The notes beneath the pieces were generated by a model. The model did no database searches, was not told where the DNA came from, and saw only the letters and a list, made by a program, of their open reading frames with translations. The position numbers were made by a program, and so were the translations under genes. This document shows, one piece after another, positions 8,682 to 51,513 of a stretch of 64,000 bases of DNA. The number at the start of each line of letters is the position of its first letter. The first letter of the stretch is position 1. Source of the DNA: Candidatus Harrisonbacteria bacterium (GTDB lineage: Bacteria; Patescibacteriota; Minisyncoccia; UBA6257; 02-FULL-45-10c); NCBI GenBank assembly GCA_016214655.1, contig JACROC010000005.1, positions 3,078 through 67,077 on the forward strand, in the 5' to 3' direction.

Positions 8682-11192
8682 TTGTATCGGATCATGAAAA
8701 AGAAAATAGTGCGTAAAAGACGGGGTACGATATCGCGATTATCACGGAAAAAAACGAAAATCTCGAAGTCACAATCTTTTTTCGGCGGTATCCGTTTAAT
8801 TTCTTTTATTTCTGCGGTTGTGATTGCGACTGTGTACGTAGTTTTTATTGTTTCTGGGGCTGCTAATACGACCATTGGTAATAACATCAGCACCAACGGC
8901 AGTTTAAGCGTTTCCGGCACCACAACTTTTAATGGTGTGTCATACACTTGGCCGTCGGCTGACGGATTAAGCGGGCGAGTCTTGTCCACCAACGGTTCCG
9001 GTGGTTTAAGCTGGTCAGCTGCCTCAAGCCAGTGGACCACTTCCGGAAGTAATATTTATTTTACCGGCGGCAATGCCGGCGTTGGCACAACGACTCCTAA
9101 CTGGCTATTACAGGCGGCTGGCACCAGGCCATTTTTTGCTTTATCTGATATTTCTGCCGGTTCCAATCTGAAACATTGGACTCTTTCATCTCAAGGCGGG
9201 AATTTATACATAGCCACTTCCACCGACGCTTATGCAACCAGTTCTATTTCTGCTTTAATGATTAGTAATGCTGGTAATATCGGTATTAGCGGTGTTGCCA
9301 CCAGTACTGCAAAATTATTTATTACCGATGGCGTTGCTACCGGCTCTCCGGCATACAGCGATCTTGTGCCGCAAGCTCTTTCTTGGCAAGCAGCCGCAGG
9401 AAATGCATACACCGGTATAGAAAATACTGCTTATGGCATAAAAGTAGCCATGTCTAGTTTTAATGATTCAGAGAGCGGTTCTTATGGAGAAATCGGCACT
9501 GCCACCAATCATCCCTTCAGGCTTTTTACGAATACCGCAACAGCTCTTAATATCACCACAAGTCAACTCATTGGTATTGGCACCAGCACTCCTTATGCGC
9601 GTCTGACAGTTTGGGGCGATAACGGAAGCGGGAAGAGTTTTGAAGTCGTTAATAATGCCTCCTCAACTTTGTTTATGGTTAAGGAGGCGGGTAATGTCGG
9701 TATCAGTTCCACTTCTCCATCCCAGACTTTTTCAGTGCAGGGCAATTCGCTATTATCCGGAAATCTTGGTGTTGCCAGTGTTACCGCGACCGGAACATTA
9801 ACTCTTTCCGGAATCTCCGGAACTTCCACAATTGCTTCGGGACAAGGATTTGCTATCGGCACAAGCCAGTTAGTTGTAGTAGGAGCCACCGGAGATATTG
9901 GCATCGGCATAACCAATCCGATTGCAGATTTTCAAGTTATCGGAAAATCTTATTTCGGCACGGAAACTTCGCTTTCAAGCGATCTAACTTCAGCTTTTGG
10001 CACGCCGCGCGTTGTTTCGGTTGGCAACAATAATTCCGCTGACGGTTTTGTAAATATTACAGAAGGGAATAATGCTGTTGGTGCGCGTTTTAGAGGCGCG
10101 AAAACTAGATCTACAGATAATGATGCGGACACCATTGTACAAAGTGGCGATAATCTTTTGGAATTAACTTCTTTTGGAGCTGACGGAGCATCTTATCGTT
10201 CCGCGGCTGAAATTTTAATGGAGGTTGATGGCACGCCGGGAAGCTCTGATATGCCTGGAAGAATAGTTTTTTCTACCACTCCGGACGGATCAGCCACTCT
10301 AAATGAGCGGATGAGAATTACTAATGCCGGTTTAGTGGGAATTGGCACTACCTCGCCATCTGCGGCATTGGCATTGGAAAATTCCGCAGTCAACACCAAA
10401 CCCGCCCTTCTCATTAAAGCCGGAGGAGCGGGGGATGGTAATATAGCCATCTCCGTGGACGCGGATGATACCTGCCGAGACTCCGTTAACGTCGCCACCT
10501 GCGTATTAAACGACTTAGCAGAACTCTTCCCAACTACCGAAGAACTGGAAGGAGGAGATATTGTGATGTTTGATCCAGAGAACCCATTTTATATCAAAAA
10601 AGCCCTAATGACTAATGACTCTATGACTAATAACTTATTAGCCGGCGTCATCTCCACTTCTCCAGCCATAGTATTTGAAGGATCTGGTCTCAAAGCTTTG
10701 GGAGGCAAATACACTTCTACTTTAGATAAGGCTCCTTTAGCCCTCTCCGGACGTATCCCAGTCAAAGTTAACCTGGAAGGAGGGGATATCCAGATCGGAG
10801 ATCCCATTACCATCTCCTCTATACCCGGAGTCGGTAAAAAAGCCACTCAAACAGGCAAGATAATAGGATATGCCCTCGAACCTCTCACCACCCAATCTCA
10901 ATCTTACGAGGTCTCACCTCATAAGATTATGATTTTTGCCAACTTAACTTATTATCAATCTTCGGAGGTTGAACCTCCGGATATTGAGGTATCGTCTTCG
11001 GGAGGTTCAACCTCCAATTTATTGAGCTTGATTATTGATACGGTAAAGAACTGGTTAAATTCTATGCAGGTTACGATTGAGAATGGTAAGTACGCAAGGG
11101 GATTGCGACATGCCTCCAGCAGAAGAAATTGCAATAGACGAACAGTCGCCGCCACCGGAGCAGAATCCAGTCATAAATACAGAAAGCTCTGA
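8682..11192 (+). CDS. membrane-anchored fibre-like repeat protein (836 aa)
   Basis: Basic N-terminus plus one TM helix, then repeated G-N-(V/I)-G-I-(G/S)-T-(T/S)-S-P-xxx-L-x-V motifs (at least 5) typical of phage tail-fibre-like or bacterial fibre proteins. Divergently arranged with the 5323..8544 gene. Confidence 0.85.
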   Translation: MYRIMKKKIVRKRRGTISRLSRKKTKISKSQSFFGGIRLISFISAVVIATVYVVFIVSGAANTTIGNNISTNGSLSVSGTTTFNGVSYTWPSADGLSGRVLSTNGSGGLSWSAASSQWTTSGSNIYFTGGNAGVGTTTPNWLLQAAGTRPFFALSDISAGSNLKHWTLSSQGGNLYIATSTDAYATSSISALMISNAGNIGISGVATSTAKLFITDGVATGSPAYSDLVPQALSWQAAAGNAYTGIENTAYGIKVAMSSFNDSESGSYGEIGTATNHPFRLFTNTATALNITTSQLIGIGTSTPYARLTVWGDNGSGKSFEVVNNASSTLFMVKEAGNVGISSTSPSQTFSVQGNSLLSGNLGVASVTATGTLTLSGISGTSTIASGQGFAIGTSQLVVVGATGDIGIGITNPIADFQVIGKSYFGTETSLSSDLTSAFGTPRVVSVGNNNSADGFVNITEGNNAVGARFRGAKTRSTDNDADTIVQSGDNLLELTSFGADGASYRSAAEILMEVDGTPGSSDMPGRIVFSTTPDGSATLNERMRITNAGLVGIGTTSPSAALALENSAVNTKPALLIKAGGAGDGNIAISVDADDTCRDSVNVATCVLNDLAELFPTTEELEGGDIVMFDPENPFYIKKALMTNDSMTNNLLAGVISTSPAIVFEGSGLKALGGKYTSTLDKAPLALSGRIPVKVNLEGGDIQIGDPITISSIPGVGKKATQTGKIIGYALEPLTTQSQSYEVSPHKIMIFANLTYYQSSEVEPPDIEVSSSGGSTSNLLSLIIDTVKNWLNSMQVTIENGKYARGLRHASSRRNCNRRTVAATGAESSHKYRKL

Positions 11193-11240: not shown

Positions 11241-11352
11241 AATTTATGTATTTTAGGCTTTTAAACGAATATCAGTTTTCTCAGCTAGTTGAAGAACCCA
11301 TCGTTTAAAGTAAATGAAAAGCCGCTCCGATGAGCCATCGGAGCGGCTTGCT

Positions 11353-12057
11353 CTAGTGAGGCATGATGCACTTGTACTGGATGTCGCCCTTGATCCGGCG
11401 GGGCAGCAGGTCTCGTTTCGGCTTTTCCGTATTGCCGCCTTGCTTGCTTTTCTCGCATGCCAGTCTGGCGCGTGCCAGCGATCTTTGCTGGGAAACACCG
11501 CCGTTGTTCAGCCAGTTATTCACTATCCCGGTGCAGAACTCCAAATCGCCGGTCTCGATCATTTTGCAGTGATCGAAATCGCCGATTTCGTCTGCTTTTT
11601 CTTCGGCTTGTAGCTTCATGTGTTCCTGGAGATACCGTAGGGGATAGTAGGCGTGCAGCGTTTCGTGGCAGCCGACATCGTTCATGGTTGCCTCGAAGTT
11701 TGACTGGTCGTAGTTGAGGTCCAGGATCGAGCGATAATATATTTCTATCACTCGTTTTTCGAACATGCCATTTACCCAGACATCATACTGCACTCCCAGT
11801 ACATTAGCTTCGACGCCTTTCACCTTGGTGTACGGTTTTAAGACTATTTCCGGGTGCGGAGCGTCAACGGGTATGCCGAGACGCAGGCGCACTGCATCTG
11901 AGACGGTTTTCCCAAGGTCCAGATCATAGGTGAATTGAAATGGCTCTTCCACTATGATCTTTCTCCGGTCGGTTGTGTGCCTGATTTGAAGATTGGTGCA
12001 TCCCAGATAGGGAAGCACCAATGCGGCCATCAGCCAGAAGCGTATGTGGGTTTTCAT
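11353..12057 (-). CDS. lipoprotein with HExxH motif (putative zinc metallopeptidase), on a GC-rich islet
   Basis: Lipobox signal peptide (LVLPYLGC) and an HETLH zinc-binding-type motif. Strong SD (AAGGAGGT). Local GC is clearly above the window background. Confidence 0.7.
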   Translation of the reverse strand: MKTHIRFWLMAALVLPYLGCTNLQIRHTTDRRKIIVEEPFQFTYDLDLGKTVSDAVRLRLGIPVDAPHPEIVLKPYTKVKGVEANVLGVQYDVWVNGMFEKRVIEIYYRSILDLNYDQSNFEATMNDVGCHETLHAYYPLRYLQEHMKLQAEEKADEIGDFDHCKMIETGDLEFCTGIVNNWLNNGGVSQQRSLARARLACEKSKQGGNTEKPKRDLLPRRIKGDIQYKCIMPH

Positions 12058-12098
12058 CAGTTTACCTCCTTGCGCTAAATTTTCAAGCTTTCAATTAC

Positions 12099-12127
12099 AT
12101 TATATAGTAATTTTTATCATTTGTCAA
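12099..12127 (-). promoter_or_regulatory. consensus sigma70-type promoter (TTGACA-17-TATAAT) for the 11353..12057 gene
   Basis: Minus-strand reading is TTGACAaatgataaaaattactaTATAAT followed by GCGCAAGGAGGTAAACTG-ATG. Confidence 0.6.
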
Positions 12128-12139
12128 CTTTTTCCGTTC

Positions 12140-12176
12140 GCTATAAAAATTAAAAACCACTAACTTTCGTTAGTGG
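12140..12176 (-). terminator. rho-independent terminator of the small lipoprotein gene
   Basis: Minus strand reads CCACUAAC-gaaa-GUUAGUGG then UUUUUAAUUUUU. The stem includes the stop codon of the 12170..12370 gene. Confidence 0.5.
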
Positions 12177-12370
12177 TGGGATATGGCGCATTTTATTTCT
12201 ATCTTTTCTTTGTTTGTAATCCGATTTTTCTTGATTGCCAGGTTGTCTTTCGTGCCGGATTTTTGAATTGCCGTGCCGGCGTTCAGTTCGGTTTTTCTTG
12301 GGCCTAAAGAGCTGCAACCGACTAGAGTAAATATGCCGAAGGTTGCGACAGTCAGGATTCTGGTTTGCAC
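12170..12370 (-). CDS. small lipoprotein (66 aa)
   Basis: GTG start preceded by GGAGGG. Lipobox signal peptide ILTVATFGIFTLVGCSS. Has its own terminator. Preferred over the overlapping 12150..12530 ORF. Confidence 0.5.
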   Translation of the reverse strand: MQTRILTVATFGIFTLVGCSSLGPRKTELNAGTAIQKSGTKDNLAIKKNRITNKEKIEIKCAISHH

Positions 12371-12562
12371 CGAAGTCCCTCCGTACCCATTTTAAAGGAG
12401 CAGTGATAGAATAACCTAATTTAACTTGTGAGTCAATAAGTATATGTAACTGTAGGGGACTATGAAAAACCTTATTTTTTGTACTAACCAAGTGTCGCAC
12501 AAGGTAGCTTTTGTGACATATACTTAGCACGAAAAAGAGGGCCGCTGTTTAAGACCGTTATA

Positions 12563-12829
12563 TTAAGATATTCTATCCATCATCTGTTTTAAGACGTCAA
12601 CGATAAAATATATCAGTTTAAATACCAATTCGCCGATTTTTGAGAATACTAGTTGTAAATTAATCCCTATATTCTCTAATACCCAACGGCCGATAGCTGA
12701 TGATAAATCTAGGAGTTTTTTGAAGAGTTCTAATAGATCTGCCCCGTTTTGCGGTACATAAGTCGCCATTTGATGGGCGGTTTGTACAAACAGATCAAAA
12801 GCCCTAAAAAACCATTCCATTACCATCAT
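12563..12829 (-). CDS. hypothetical protein (88 aa), last gene of the ftsW-murG-gltX-M23 operon
   Basis: Starts 12 nt after the M23 peptidase stop on the same strand. No recognisable motif. Confidence 0.4.
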   Translation of the reverse strand: MMVMEWFFRAFDLFVQTAHQMATYVPQNGADLLELFKKLLDLSSAIGRWVLENIGINLQLVFSKIGELVFKLIYFIVDVLKQMMDRIS

Positions 12830-35763: not shown

Positions 35764-36168
35764 TTAGGGGTCATAATATAGCGGCTTGCGGTCGGATGTA
35801 TTTCTAAGACAATATTCTACGTACCTTACGCGTTTCCACTTTATTCCTATGGCGGGCCAGTCTTCAACGCGAAACCAATCACCTGTTCTTGCACTGTTTA
35901 CTTTGTCAATTTTTTCATAAAAACGTTCCCCATCAAGATGGTATAAATAAATTCCTTTTTCGTTGCTAGTTAGGAATTTACCACAAATCGGCACTAAATC
36001 ATGTTCATCATTTTCTACGGTAACTAATAAAACCTCTCCTTGTTTAACGAGTGTATTCAGGCTTTTTCGTTCCTGTTTTAGTTGTTTAGTATCACTACCC
36101 AAACTTGCGCAACTGCTTATAGTAAGAGCTAAAAATAAGCTAATTGACACTTTACCCGCGTTTTTCAT
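35764..36168 (-). CDS. lipoprotein (134 aa)
   Basis: Signal peptide with lipobox (LALTISSC). Confidence 0.55.
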   Translation of the reverse strand: MKNAGKVSISLFLALTISSCASLGSDTKQLKQERKSLNTLVKQGEVLLVTVENDEHDLVPICGKFLTSNEKGIYLYHLDGERFYEKIDKVNSARTGDWFRVEDWPAIGIKWKRVRYVEYCLRNTSDRKPLYYDP

Positions 36169-36234: not shown

Positions 36235-36266
36235 TTGACAGAATTACATAATTTATGTTAGTATAT
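36235..36266 (+). promoter_or_regulatory. promoter (TTGACA..TAGTAT) overlapped by the palindrome TTGTCAATcATTGACA
   Basis: cttgtcaatcattgacagaattacataatttatgttagtatatat. The perfect -35 element lies inside an 8+8 inverted repeat, a candidate operator. Confidence 0.5.
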
Positions 36267-36346
36267 ATTCGAGAGAGGATTTGCGTCCTCTCCTGCTATG
36301 CCGAGAGAGGCATAGTAAAACTACGAGAGAGTAGCAAGGAGGGAAC

Positions 36347-36829
36347 ATGAAGTTCGTTAAAAACTTCGTAAGAGTAGAGGCTCTGGCGCTCCAGCGGGCG
36401 CTCGAGCTTCAGAAGGAAACCGACCGCGGCAGTCTCTACCTGGCAAGTTCTGAGCTCCAGAATGAGTTTGGCTGGGCAGTAGATCTGGCCAGCCGCGGAG
36501 AAGATGTTTGCGACCTTGAGGGTAAGGTTGTGGGACATCGAGAACTCTCCCCTGCGCAACTTGGTCTTGCAGGAGAGATCGATGAATTCACGGCCGTTGA
36601 CTTTTCCGGCCGCGGCGATGCATATCTTGAGCGACTATACCTTTTCGCTTTCAACGATCCGAAGATACACAAAAGATCGCTTTTTGTGTTCGTGAAGATC
36701 GTGAGGCAGACAAGAGACAGCGATTGGGAGATTGTAGTGGAATCCGCCTGGAAGGCCAACGATGGCGTGTATTCAAACCAGGACAATCTTATCTACCGAG
36801 ATTTTCGAAAGAAGGAATTGGTTCACTGA
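36347..36829 (+). CDS. acidic hypothetical protein (160 aa) on a GC-rich islet
   Basis: Strong SD (AAGGAGGG). GC is far above the window background. The leader carries three hairpins, each displaying CGAGAGAG. Confidence 0.65.
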   Translation: MKFVKNFVRVEALALQRALELQKETDRGSLYLASSELQNEFGWAVDLASRGEDVCDLEGKVVGHRELSPAQLGLAGEIDEFTAVDFSGRGDAYLERLYLFAFNDPKIHKRSLFVFVKIVRQTRDSDWEIVVESAWKANDGVYSNQDNLIYRDFRKKELVH

Positions 36830-36833
36830 TATC

Positions 36834-36871
36834 AGCCCCAGGAAGGTAAAACTTCCTGGGGCATTTTTTTA
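36834..36871 (+). terminator. strong rho-independent terminator
   Basis: gccccaggaag-gtaaaac-ttcctggggc followed by attttttt. Confidence 0.7.
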
Positions 36872-48639: not shown

Positions 48640-49050
48640 TTATAACACCAAACCTTTTACCCTAGCGCCCTCTGCGACCGCCCTTATTCTTCCATGATAC
48701 AAATAGGTTCCCTTATTAAAGACCGCCTTTTTAATGCCTAATTTTTGGGCTTGTTCAGCTAGTTTTTCACCGAGTAATTTAGCTTGTTCAGTCTTATTTA
48801 ATTTATCGGATTTTGACAGAGTTTTAGTGGATTCGAAGGCTAAAGTTTTTCCGGTCGCGTCATCTATTAGTTGCGCAGTAGTATAGCGATTACTGCGAAA
48901 TACTGAAAGTCTTGGCTTTTCAGCCGTTCCAAAAATTTTTGCCCGGTTTCTATTTTTTCTTCTTGCCTTTCTTAAATTTTTTAGTTTGACGTTTTTCATA
49001 ATGGGTCCTATTAAACTTATTTTATTTTTATGCCGCGGCGGCTGTAGCAC
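48640..49050 (-). CDS. rplR: 50S ribosomal protein L18
   Basis: FRSNRYTTAQLIDDATGKTLAFEST. The ORF-track GTG start overlaps rplF; an internal ATG (MKNVKL) at about 48998 is an alternative start. Confidence 0.85.
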   Translation of the reverse strand: MLQPPRHKNKISLIGPIMKNVKLKNLRKARRKNRNRAKIFGTAEKPRLSVFRSNRYTTAQLIDDATGKTLAFESTKTLSKSDKLNKTEQAKLLGEKLAEQAQKLGIKKAVFNKGTYLYHGRIRAVAEGARVKGLVL

Positions 49051-49582
49051 CGGCGACTTTTTTACCGGCTTTTAATTTAACCACCTCGCCTTTATAACGA
49101 ATTCCTTTTCCTTGATACGGTTCTGGTTTTTTTATGGTCCGGATTTTGGCGGCGGTTTGTCCAACTAAATTTTTATTCGCCCCGGATATTTTTATAAAAT
49201 TTTTTTCTACGGCTATCTTGATTCCTTCCGGAGTTGGGAATTTAATTGGATGGGTAAATCCAACGTTTAAAATCAAAACACTTCCTTCCATGGTTGCCCG
49301 GTAACCCACTCCTTGAATTTCCAGCTCTTTGATAAATCCAGAATTTACTCCGTTAACGGCATTTTGTGTCAACGCGCGCATAGTTCCCCAATTTGCCCGG
49401 GATTGTTTCTCTTCTCCGGCGGCAGTTACTATAATTTGATTATCTTTTAACTCAATTTGAGTATGTGGTAAAACCGGCAACATTAAAGTTCCTTCTTTTC
49501 CTTTTACTTCCACTAAATTATCTTTTATTTGTACAGTAACTCCCTGAGGAATCACTATTGGTTTTTTTCCTACTTTGCTCAT
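49028..49582 (-). CDS. rplF: 50S ribosomal protein L6
   Basis: MSKVGKKPIVIPQGVTV... with duplicated L6 domains. Confidence 0.9.
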   Translation of the reverse strand: MSKVGKKPIVIPQGVTVQIKDNLVEVKGKEGTLMLPVLPHTQIELKDNQIIVTAAGEEKQSRANWGTMRALTQNAVNGVNSGFIKELEIQGVGYRATMEGSVLILNVGFTHPIKFPTPEGIKIAVEKNFIKISGANKNLVGQTAAKIRTIKKPEPYQGKGIRYKGEVVKLKAGKKVAGATAAAA

Positions 49583-49636
49583 TGTTAGGTGTTGGGTGTT
49601 AGGTGTTAGATAATTTTTCTAAAACCTAAAACCTAA
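49583..49636. repeat. heptamer arrays (GGTGTTA)x3-4 and (CCTAAAA)x2-3 between rpsH and rplF
   Basis: tgttaggtgttgggtgttaggtgttag ... ctaaaacctaaaacctaa. In the mRNA sense (CUAACAC)n ends 1 nt before the rplF AUG. Confidence 0.85.
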
Positions 49637-51053: not shown

Positions 51054-51422
51054 TTATACTACTTCTTCCGCCATTGTAAATACGGTTTCAAATTTCTTTT
51101 CTTTAATTTCCCGCGGCAGTGGCCCGAAAATGCGGGTTCCTTTTGGTTCCTTTTTCTCATCTATGATAACTACGGCGTTATCATCAAAACGCAAATAAGA
51201 CCCGTCTTTCCGGCGCAGCGCTTTTCTTTGTCTGACTACCACGCATTTTACGATGTCTTTCTTCTTGATAGCTTTTCTTGGTTCTGCAATTTGGACCGAA
51301 GCAATAACAATATCCCCGATTTCCGCATATCTTTTTCGGCTGCCGCCCAAAACTCTAAAACAACGCACGATTTTGGCGCCGCTATTATCCGCTACTTTTA
51401 ATATGGAACGTTCTTGTATCAT
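51054..51422 (-). CDS. rplN: 50S ribosomal protein L14
   Basis: [17 protein letters not shown]. Confidence 0.9.
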
Positions 51423-51513
51423 AGGTTAGGGGTTAGGGGTTAGGGGTTAGGGGTTAGGGGTTAGAAAAATTTATTTATAAAATTCTATACCCTCAACCCT
51501 ATAACCTAAACCC
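51423..51513. repeat. (GGGGTTA)x6 tandem array plus C-rich partially complementary array between rpsQ and rplN
   Basis: ggttaggggttaggggttaggggttaggggttaggggttag ... ccctcaaccctataacctaaaccc. In the mRNA sense (CUAACCC)6 ends 1 nt before the rplN AUG. The G-strand has five or more GGGG tracts and is capable of forming a G-quadruplex. Confidence 0.9.

Follow-up and report, generated by a model that had tools for sequence, protein, structure and literature searches.

The stretch of DNA analysed here (the window) is 64 kb long, has an overall GC content of 41.6%, and comes from the genome of a Candidatus Harrisonbacteria organism, a lineage of the candidate phyla radiation (CPR). We describe a gene on its minus strand for a putative lipoprotein of 234 amino acids (aa) carrying an HExxH motif, and the adjoining gene for a 66-aa lipoprotein; the two are referred to below as the module. 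The larger product is 100% identical to the protein HZB99_01560 of a Ca. Harrisonbacteria metagenome-assembled genome. The features of the locus are collected in Table 1. An earlier note on this DNA had placed the small lipoprotein gene downstream of the HExxH gene, but read on the coding (minus) strand it sits upstream.

Table 1. Features of the HExxH lipoprotein gene and of the small lipoprotein gene (positions are those of the window; SD, Shine-Dalgarno sequence; CDS, coding sequence; nt, nucleotides)
Feature	Coordinates	Strand	Remarks
CDS, 234-aa HExxH lipoprotein	11353..12057	-	NCBI HZB99_01560, annotated as hypothetical protein
Promoter TTGACA-17-TATAAT	12127..12099	-	Scores 12/12
SD AAGGAGGT	12064..12071	-	8-nt match, 6 nt 5′ of the ATG
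Intrinsic-terminator-like hairpin	11349..11319	-	Perfect 14 bp, directly 3′ of the HExxH stop codon
Signal peptide MKTHIRFWLMAALVLPYLG and Cys20 (lipobox-type)	11998..12057	-	Basic n-region, then hydrophobic, ending in Gly-Cys
HETLH, residues 131-135	11653..11667	-	Invariant in 7/7 members, within a long predicted helix
FDHCKMIETGDL, residues 161-172	11542..11577	-	Second block, invariant except at position 167 (I/V)
C-terminal tail motif DIQYKCIMPH	11356..11385	-	Preceded by a disordered basic linker
CDS, 66-aa small lipoprotein	12170..12370	-	NCBI HZB99_01565; GTG start
SD GGAGGG of the small gene	12377..12382	-	SD match
Terminator-like hairpin and T-run, 3′ end of the small gene	12177..12156	-	Lies between the two transcription units
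Candidate promoter of the small gene, TTGACT-17-TATTCT	12408..12436	-	9/12, weak evidence

Relatives of the HExxH protein were sought in 5.8 billion clusters, by word index and by profile, and in 1.84 billion representatives by exhaustive phmmer; together these searches cover about 15 billion proteins. The family found comprises seven clusters; neither more distant relatives nor homologues in other lineages were found in this protein space, and a scan of IMG/VR gave no viral copy. Both clusters with a named source belong to Ca. Harrisonbacteria, UniRef labels one member "Lipoprotein", and all informative genomic contexts of the family are those of Harrisonbacteria or close relatives. Contigs and loci from related genomes used for comparison are designated by L-numbers.

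The lipoprotein-type N-terminus and the HExxH motif of the earlier note both stand. The protein has the basic and hydrophobic N-terminus and the invariant Cys (Cys20) of a lipoprotein signal, and the Gly-Cys pair is kept in all full-length members (LPSLGC, LPFYGC, LPFSGC, LSANGC and FTIGC). Twenty columns of the family alignment are invariant, while mean column identity is 48%; these are H131, E132, L134, H135, A136, Y138, Y142, FDHCKM (161-166), ETGDL (168-172), S193 and C201. Four invariant residues that are candidates for a third metal ligand, D162, H163, E168 and D171, lie 27-36 residues past H135. The second block of Table 1 holds the candidate ligand (D162, H163 or E168) as well as the conserved Cys164, which may form a disulfide with Cys201. 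Comparison with an 88%-identical allele in L047 gives a ratio of nonsynonymous to synonymous substitution rates (dN/dS) of 0.08, indicative of purifying selection.

An AlphaFold2 model of residues 21-207, built from the family alignment, has a mean predicted local distance difference test score (pLDDT) of 84 and a predicted template modelling score (pTM) of 0.82. It consists of three strands, a helix and three further strands (beta3-alpha-beta3), followed by a five-helix bundle. The first and long helix of this bundle (residues 118-141) bears the HExxH motif, and the third bears FDHCKM.

The locus itself is conserved. Using the neighbouring M23 peptidase gene product as query against the GTDB species representatives, we fetched 28 loci. 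The organisms that share the site of the module are uncultured and live in groundwater. The HExxH gene occupies the same position, after a run of FtsW, MurG, GltX, EnvC-like M23 and p88 genes, in three other genomes (L001, L007/L008 and L044/L045), where its product is 68%, 40% and 50% identical, respectively, to that of the window. The flanking housekeeping proteins of these three genomes are 50-67% identical to those of the window, and from this shared position we conclude that the gene has held its site through deep divergence. In L044 the downstream side is syntenic as well, with genes for a CarboxypepD_reg protein, iPGM, a 253-aa protein and then an S41 peptidase, and the window differs from it there only by an inserted gene for an 836-aa surface protein. 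The upstream context in L010 is different, with iPGM still nearby.

The promoter and SD described in the earlier note are both present, and its remark on the scarcity of SDs among the other genes is correct. Two perfect TTGACA-17-TATAAT matches are found in the 64 kb, where 0.03 are expected from shuffled sequences, and one of them serves the HExxH gene. When the 61 window genes were scanned for SD matches of at least 5 nt at positions -4 to -21, 55 had none, ribosomal-protein genes included, and only a handful were near-perfect; the match upstream of the HExxH gene is the longest of all. The 16S anti-SD motif has been reported missing in a subgroup of Parcubacteria (PMC9297842). We aligned 130 nt of upstream sequence from the six family members for which it is available. 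All six keep a -35 element (TTGAC or TTGAT), a spacer of 16-17 nt and a -10 element (TATAAT, TAAAAT, TATAAA or TAAATT), accompanied in each case by the leader motif AGCTTGAAAATT or variants of it. The SD is strong in four of the six (window, AAGGAGGT; L044, TAAGGAGGT; L001, AAGGGAGGA; L007, GTGGAGGAG) and weaker in the members from L006 and L010. In L044 promoter and SD are kept for both genes of the module, while the neighbours have neither. Hairpins equivalent to the HExxH terminator also lie 3′ of the orthologues in L001 and L047. Since promoter, leader and SD are retained even in L044, where the base composition of the gene is that of its host, these signals are native to the module and not the baggage of a foreign donor. 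The E. coli-like signals are an inherited property of the HExxH gene family.

The compositional anomaly reported for this region is also real. With a GC content of 0.515 and a GC content at third codon positions (GC3) of 0.643, the HExxH gene ranks first among 62 window open reading frames (ORFs; mean GC3 0.40, standard deviation 0.06), the runner-up being at 0.559. Resampling synonymous codons from the codon usage of the window with the amino acids held fixed (5000 draws) gives an expected GC3 of 0.400 ± 0.030 and a maximum of 0.511, so that the gene deviates by z=7.9. In 300-nt windows GC reaches 0.53-0.54 at 11300-11700 and is approximately 0.37-0.40 on either side. The bias consists chiefly in the avoidance of T-ending codons: C/(C+T) at two-fold pyrimidine-ending codons is 0.70, compared with 0.73 (n=15) in the small lipoprotein gene, 0.57 in a gene at 36347, 0.44 in EF-Tu and 0.11-0.51 in the remaining window genes. 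By GC3 the small lipoprotein gene deviates weakly (0.51, z=2.2). An antisense ORF was rejected as the source of the bias, the minus-strand frame with its dN/dS of 0.08 being the coding one.

Orthologues differ in this respect. GC3 of the HExxH gene is 0.60 in L001, against about 0.46-0.51 in most of its neighbours; in L007 it is 0.71, with 0.67 for the small lipoprotein gene and 0.45-0.52 for seven neighbours. The L044 gene (0.32) falls within the range of its neighbours (0.28-0.35), and those of L010 and L006 are likewise not raised. Synonymous sites between the window and L001 are near saturation, the proportion of synonymous differences (pS) being 0.70 in the HExxH gene and 0.77-0.83 in flanking genes, and L007 is far more distant. 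Because GC3 is still high at such near-saturated sites, the failure of one ancient import to ameliorate cannot account for the pattern.

From composition and signals together, the earlier note had surmised horizontal acquisition; spelled out, this would be a recent foreign islet, acquired from an SD-using, GC-richer donor outside the lineage along with its promoter and SD. The GC3 deviation, the perfect sigma70 consensus and the perfect SD in an SD-poor genome are what such an origin would leave; a stand-alone promoter-gene-terminator unit of atypical GC resembles a phage "moron", and the adjoining 836-aa protein matches tail-fibre families of PHROGs (E=2e-26). Nevertheless, no homologue outside Harrisonbacteria-like genomes turned up among the 15 billion proteins or in IMG/VR; the same locus is found in four genomes with flanking proteins 50-67% identical; promoter, leader and SD are the same where the gene has host-like GC; and high GC3 at nearly saturated synonymous sites is not explained by unameliorated foreign DNA. 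The flanks are housekeeping genes and not a prophage. The window scan for tRNA and the Rfam scan of the window (no rRNA) were both empty, no direct or att-like repeats were found around the islet, and no integrase, transposase or other mobility gene occurs among the neighbours. What would characterize an islet is thus present as far as the deviating composition goes, and donor or mobile-element homologues and integration hallmarks were not found. A prophage context, suggested by the tail-fibre-like 836-aa neighbour, was set aside on the grounds that this gene is missing from syntenic L044 and that both flanks are housekeeping. Recent acquisition from outside the lineage is therefore largely refuted, and we regard it as extremely improbable.

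A different kind of transfer deserves more weight, namely that the module has been swapped among Harrisonbacteria by homologous recombination at its conserved flanks, the alleles of the window, L001 and L007 deriving from GC-richer relatives and not having ameliorated yet. The compositional boundary does follow the module (0.67 and 0.71 in L007 against 0.45-0.52 in its neighbours; C/(C+T) of about 0.7 for the pair in the window), the module is present in some relatives and absent from others, and the content between p88 and the next conserved gene is variable, L001 having genes for FemAB and a response-regulator-like protein there, L007 one for 97 aa and the window that for the 836-aa protein. 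Identity between window and L001 is 68% for the HExxH protein, similar to GltX (67%) and above MurG (58%), M23 (55%) and p88 (33%), and its pS of 0.70 is below the 0.77-0.83 of flanking genes, which is however equally expected from shared codon bias. Against such replacement, no GC-rich donor genome or contig context was found: every member with context lies in a background of 30-47% GC, and contigs of 0.9-1.4 kb at 50-52% GC are mostly the gene itself. The GC-rich alleles do not form one clade, that of L007 being only 40% identical to those of both window and L001, so several independent transfers would be required, all from GC-richer donors; nor were mobility genes or repeats found. On balance we consider lateral replacement within the lineage rather unlikely.

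Two causes of the raised GC3 remain, and we do not decide between them: selection for C-ending codons in some lineages, or repeated replacement by alleles of GC-richer relatives. The former would fit a strongly expressed unit, but ribosomal-protein genes are not GC3-rich; against the latter stands the missing GC-richer donor. Ordinary translational selection was set aside as a full account, because ribosomal-protein genes and EF-Tu have a GC3 of 0.30-0.41 and the gene is unbiased in L044 and L010. In some lineages the preference for GC-rich, C-ending codons is a property of the module, and it does not count as evidence of recent import from outside the lineage.

The small lipoprotein has the terminator of its own that the earlier note had ascribed to it, and a canonical lipobox (LVGC, within FTLVGC), followed by a K-rich linker and the C-terminus KIEIKCAISHH. 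In the window, L007 and L044 the HExxH gene is directly preceded by one for a lipoprotein of 63-71 aa, and contig L006 opens with the 3′ end of such a gene (..KKVIRCELKSR*). The order of small-gene terminator and then HExxH promoter is the same in L007, L044 and L006. The three full-length small proteins are only 20-27% identical, sharing the lipobox (ending in CGC and SGC in the orthologues), the Lys-rich linker and a C-terminal I-x-I-[K/N]-C. Scans against Pfam, NCBIfam, PADLOC and PHROGs gave nothing relevant for the small protein, and a profile search with the three returned only those three.

A comparable ending is found on the HExxH proteins of these genomes, namely a disordered basic linker and DIQYKC, KRYKC or KRLNC followed by aliphatic residues. 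Among 730 de-duplicated stop-to-stop segments of at least 100 aa, drawn as proxy ORFs from all sequences in hand, the tail motif occurs within the last 15 residues of six, five of which are family members. Tail and small gene are both present in four genomes and both absent in two (L001 and L010), with no discordant case. This concordance, seen in the sequences of six genomes, suggests a physical or regulatory link between the HExxH protein and the small lipoprotein.

A further explanation is an effector-immunity or toxin-inhibitor pair, in which the HExxH lipoprotein is a contact-dependent weapon against the envelopes of host or neighbour cells and the small lipoprotein protects the producer. 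The genes are adjacent and are lost together, both products are predicted to be envelope-anchored, the common tail motif suggests direct interaction, and pseudogenised alleles and patchy distribution fit genes involved in conflict. Yet a terminator divides the two into separate transcription units, of which that of the putative immunity gene comes first, the HExxH gene persists in L001 and L010 where the small gene is missing (as is the tail), PADLOC gave no match and no secretion or toxin-delivery domain was recognisable, and a dN/dS of 0.08 bears no sign of an arms race. We judge this explanation very unlikely.

As to function, the HExxH protein probably takes part in metal-dependent hydrolysis in the envelope. 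Zinc metallopeptidase is the most likely activity, at roughly an even chance, because the motif with its Glu is invariant and because genes for peptidoglycan functions and peptidases lie nearby (M23, S41 and, in L001, FemAB). In zincins the Glu of HExxH is the general base, and the succession of sheet, backing helix, HExxH helix and downstream helices with acidic or His candidates is that of the minimal zincins. The "zinc-protease-like" label of the earlier note thus rests on a motif invariant in seven of seven members, and not on any profile or fold match. Of the hallmarks of zincins, HExxH on a helix is present, and fold similarity and a match to a curated peptidase profile were not obtained.

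Alternatively, the HExxH and DH(C) residues might form a metal or ligand site in a lipoprotein that is not proteolytic (for example one that scavenges metal, acts as a chaperone or has a structural role in the envelope), with the small lipoprotein as no more than a co-regulated neighbour. No sequence or fold similarity to zincins was found despite a confident model, and the helical-bundle setting of the conserved His, Asp, Glu and Cys residues would also fit non-catalytic metal sites. Moreover, ABC-3 and ABC_tran genes, of a kind linked with transporters for metal uptake, lie 2.5-4 kb from the non-syntenic copy in L010. On the other hand, the Glu of HExxH, which is invariant, would be dispensable in a His2 site of purely structural nature, the order of secondary structure elements is that of the minimal zincins, and the locus lies among the peptidoglycan and peptidase genes named above. 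A non-peptidase role seems to us somewhat unlikely, though of the alternatives it is the one to be taken most seriously.

Our preferred reading, for which we see about as much chance of being right as of being wrong, is that the two genes form a surface-lipoprotein module restricted to Ca. Harrisonbacteria-like CPR, kept at a fixed site beside a cell-wall gene cluster, with its own expression signals and with a metallopeptidase as the HExxH product. The module would have been inherited mainly vertically next to FtsW-MurG-GltX-M23/EnvC-like-p88 and lost in some relatives. Each gene would be transcribed by itself, from a sigma70-type promoter to an intrinsic terminator, and translated from a strong SD; in a genome about 90% of whose genes lack an SD, these signals might raise the expression of the pair to an unusual level or place it under separate control. 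The 234-aa product would be exported and lipid-anchored at Cys20, the alpha/beta domain preceding the five-helix bundle, in which the invariant HExLHAxY and FDHCKMxETGDL blocks would form the zinc site. It might then be a small metallopeptidase active outside the cytoplasm, with a fold family not described before, and its substrates would be peptides of the envelope or cell surface, whether of the producing cell or of the host to which the episymbiont is attached. The 66-aa lipoprotein would be its partner, as both proteins end in a flexible basic linker and a [I/K]-x-[I/Y/L]-[K/N]-C-aliphatic motif. We speculate that the tails pair, through a disulfide or by strand pairing, or that the Cys blocks the metal site in a cysteine-switch-like latency.

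A number of observations count against this reading. With regard to inheritance, five close loci (L016, L017, L018, L027 and L032) have no family member downstream, a MurC-like gene following p88 directly in L016, L027 and L032, and because of them vertical inheritance requires several losses. The earlier note had counted orthologues at the same locus in all relatives as a sign against import; this applies to L001, L007/L008 and L044, and not to these five. The patchy distribution reflects either several losses or gains within the lineage. The HExxH gene can indeed be lost, since in-frame stops occur in L003-L005 (TAA at about nt 90-115, where L044 has GAA) and in L047 (TAG at about nt 70-75 of an otherwise 88% identical allele). 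The stop-bearing alleles are probably pseudogenised and circulate beside intact ones, and L003-L005 may be re-assemblies of the same data. Furthermore, vertical descent alone is insufficient to explain why GC3 is raised in the window, L001 and L007 and not in L044, L010 and L006.

The protein itself raises similar doubts. The window lipobox is non-canonical, with Tyr at -3, and the tail, whose motif was defined post hoc after the sequences had been seen, is predicted to be disordered (pLDDT about 30) and undocked on the core. A Foldseek search of the PDB with the pLDDT-84 model gave a best E of 0.12 and no metallopeptidase in the top 50. A first model had likewise found no significant match in the PDB, nor did a Foldseek search of BFVD with one model; membership of the zincin fold was thus tested and is not supported. 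Scans of Pfam, NCBIfam and PADLOC with the HExxH protein produced nothing relevant and PHROGs only a non-significant match. Across the seven members there were only single matches to Zincin_1 and SprT-like at E of about 0.15, which is noise level, and a sequence-profile search of the PDB gave only a spurious match to ribosomal protein L3 (E=0.5).

A bolder version of the preferred reading would make this a new structural family of metallopeptidases in one CPR lineage, gated by its Cys-bearing C-terminal tail, with the 66-aa lipoprotein as an inhibitor or activator acting in trans through the same tail, and with promoter, perfect SD and, in several lineages, C-ending codons forming a high-output cassette amid otherwise SD-less initiation. 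In this full form it is decidedly unlikely.

A life in attachment to other cells is generally assumed for CPR bacteria (Patescibacteria), and little is known of the proteins on their surface. If confirmed, the module would provide a metalloenzyme that is specific to the lineage, strongly expressed, anchored in the envelope and supplied with its own partner, a candidate for envelope remodelling or host interaction with a fold absent from the PDB. For genome scanning it carries a caution, namely that a sharp GC3 anomaly accompanied by signals of E. coli type can point to a native module of long standing and not to a recent import. The few SD-led genes of this otherwise SD-poor CPR genome form a small class that is also relevant to start-site choice by reduced ribosomes. 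In practical terms the importance is modest at present.

Several neighbours of the module deserve mention. Convergent with the HExxH gene lies that for the 836-aa surface protein (8682-11192, plus strand), which is rich in Gly, Thr and Ser and matches two PHROG tail-fibre families (E=2e-26 and 2e-20) and nothing in Pfam. Homologous C-terminal domains are found in L001 and L018, and its N-terminus is shared with an LVIVD protein encoded beside the HExxH gene of L010. The window protein stops soon after the sequence MQVxIENG, and the L001 and L018 homologues run more than 100 residues further; its early end may be due to a truncation or frameshift. On the other side, always after the EnvC-like M23 gene, is a gene for a hydrophobic protein of 84-88 aa (12563-12829, minus strand). 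Orthologues with 29-40% identity are present in all close relatives (L001, L007, L016, L017, L018, L022, L027, L032 and L044), Pfam and NCBIfam gave no significant match, and a role as partner of the M23 protein in the membrane is possible.

A non-coding element present in a single copy, ATGTCRCAAAAGnTAnnTTGTGCGACA, with imperfect 7-nt inverted arms (TGTCGCA/TGCGACA), is located at 12493-12519 (minus strand). It recurs at 5474-5500 in L001, 9662-9688 in L018, 2214-2240 in L022, 4933-4959 in L032 and 5504-5530 in L044, and is almost invariant just 3′ of p88 in at least seven genomes with saturated synonymous sites. It precedes murC in relatives that lack the module, and the small lipoprotein gene in the window and L044. 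Rfam gave no match to it, and it could be either an operator or a structured small RNA.

A second stand-alone GC-rich unit is found at 36235-36870 (plus strand), with a promoter-like TTGACA-18-TAGTAT, a leader in which CGAGAGAG is repeated as hairpin arms, the SD AAGGAGGG and an 11-bp terminator at the 3′ end. Its ORF (36347..36829, plus strand) encodes 160 aa without a signal peptide, has a GC3 of 0.56 (z=4.8) and a G/(A+G) of 0.70 at Lys, Glu and Gln codons, and is without a match in Pfam, NCBIfam, PADLOC and PHROGs. The architecture common to this unit and the HExxH unit suggests a small class of SD-led, GC3-rich monocistrons in the genome. Divergent from it runs a third lipobox-type ORF (35764-36168, minus strand), beginning MKNAGKVSISLFLALTISSC..., also without a Pfam match. 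Finally, short C/A-rich tandem units, AACACCTAACACCCAACACCTAACA and ACCCCTAACCCCTAACCCCTAACCT (as seen in the 25 nt listed upstream), occur at 49583-49610 and 51423-51450, upstream of the ribosomal-cluster ORFs 49028..49582 and 51054..51422 (minus strand).

Several known systems invite comparison. Like SD-poor bacteria in which a few genes have a strong SD (Bacteroidetes, and the part of Parcubacteria with anti-SD loss; PMC9297842), the window has about 90% of its genes, ribosomal-protein genes included, without an SD and a handful with a near-perfect one; the window contains no rRNA, and the comparison covers SD matches upstream of its genes. Phage "morons" and small genomic islets are similar in being stand-alone promoter-gene-terminator units with a GC content unlike that of their neighbours. 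The module differs from them in lying outside any prophage, on the FtsW-MurG-GltX-M23 ... iPGM chromosome backbone common to L044, and in keeping its position in divergent genomes; neither a donor nor mobility genes or att repeats were found for it. E. coli LoiP (YggG) and BepA, of peptidase family M48, also combine HExxH with a lipobox-type signal and an envelope location near cell-wall genes; their size and predicted fold are different, and the HExxH protein gives no Peptidase_M48 match even at E≤10.

The cysteine switch of the matrix metalloproteinases, in the PRCGxPD motif of the pro-peptide, resembles the tails described here in having a conserved unpaired Cys in a flexible segment outside the core, which in our case is present on both the enzyme and its small partner. 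Here this segment is C-terminal and not part of an N-terminal pro-domain, and the fold is unrelated; the analogy is a mechanistic one only. Closest in plan are the minimal zincins or minigluzincins (proabylysin and projannalysin, models of the M48/M56 catalytic cores). Proabylysin is reported to be kept latent by a C-terminal tail that could block its own cleft, a possible parallel to the tail described here. There is no sequence-profile or Foldseek similarity to these proteins, and the FDHCKMxETGDL block is without counterpart in them; the HExxH protein is, moreover, a predicted exported lipoprotein with an extra N-terminal alpha/beta domain and a tail predicted to be disordered and undocked. 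The fold and the partner arrangement are new, and current understanding is not overturned. What the HExxH protein and the minimal zincins have in common is their small size, a small beta-sheet and a backing helix before the long helix that bears HExxH, and later helices that could carry the third ligand.

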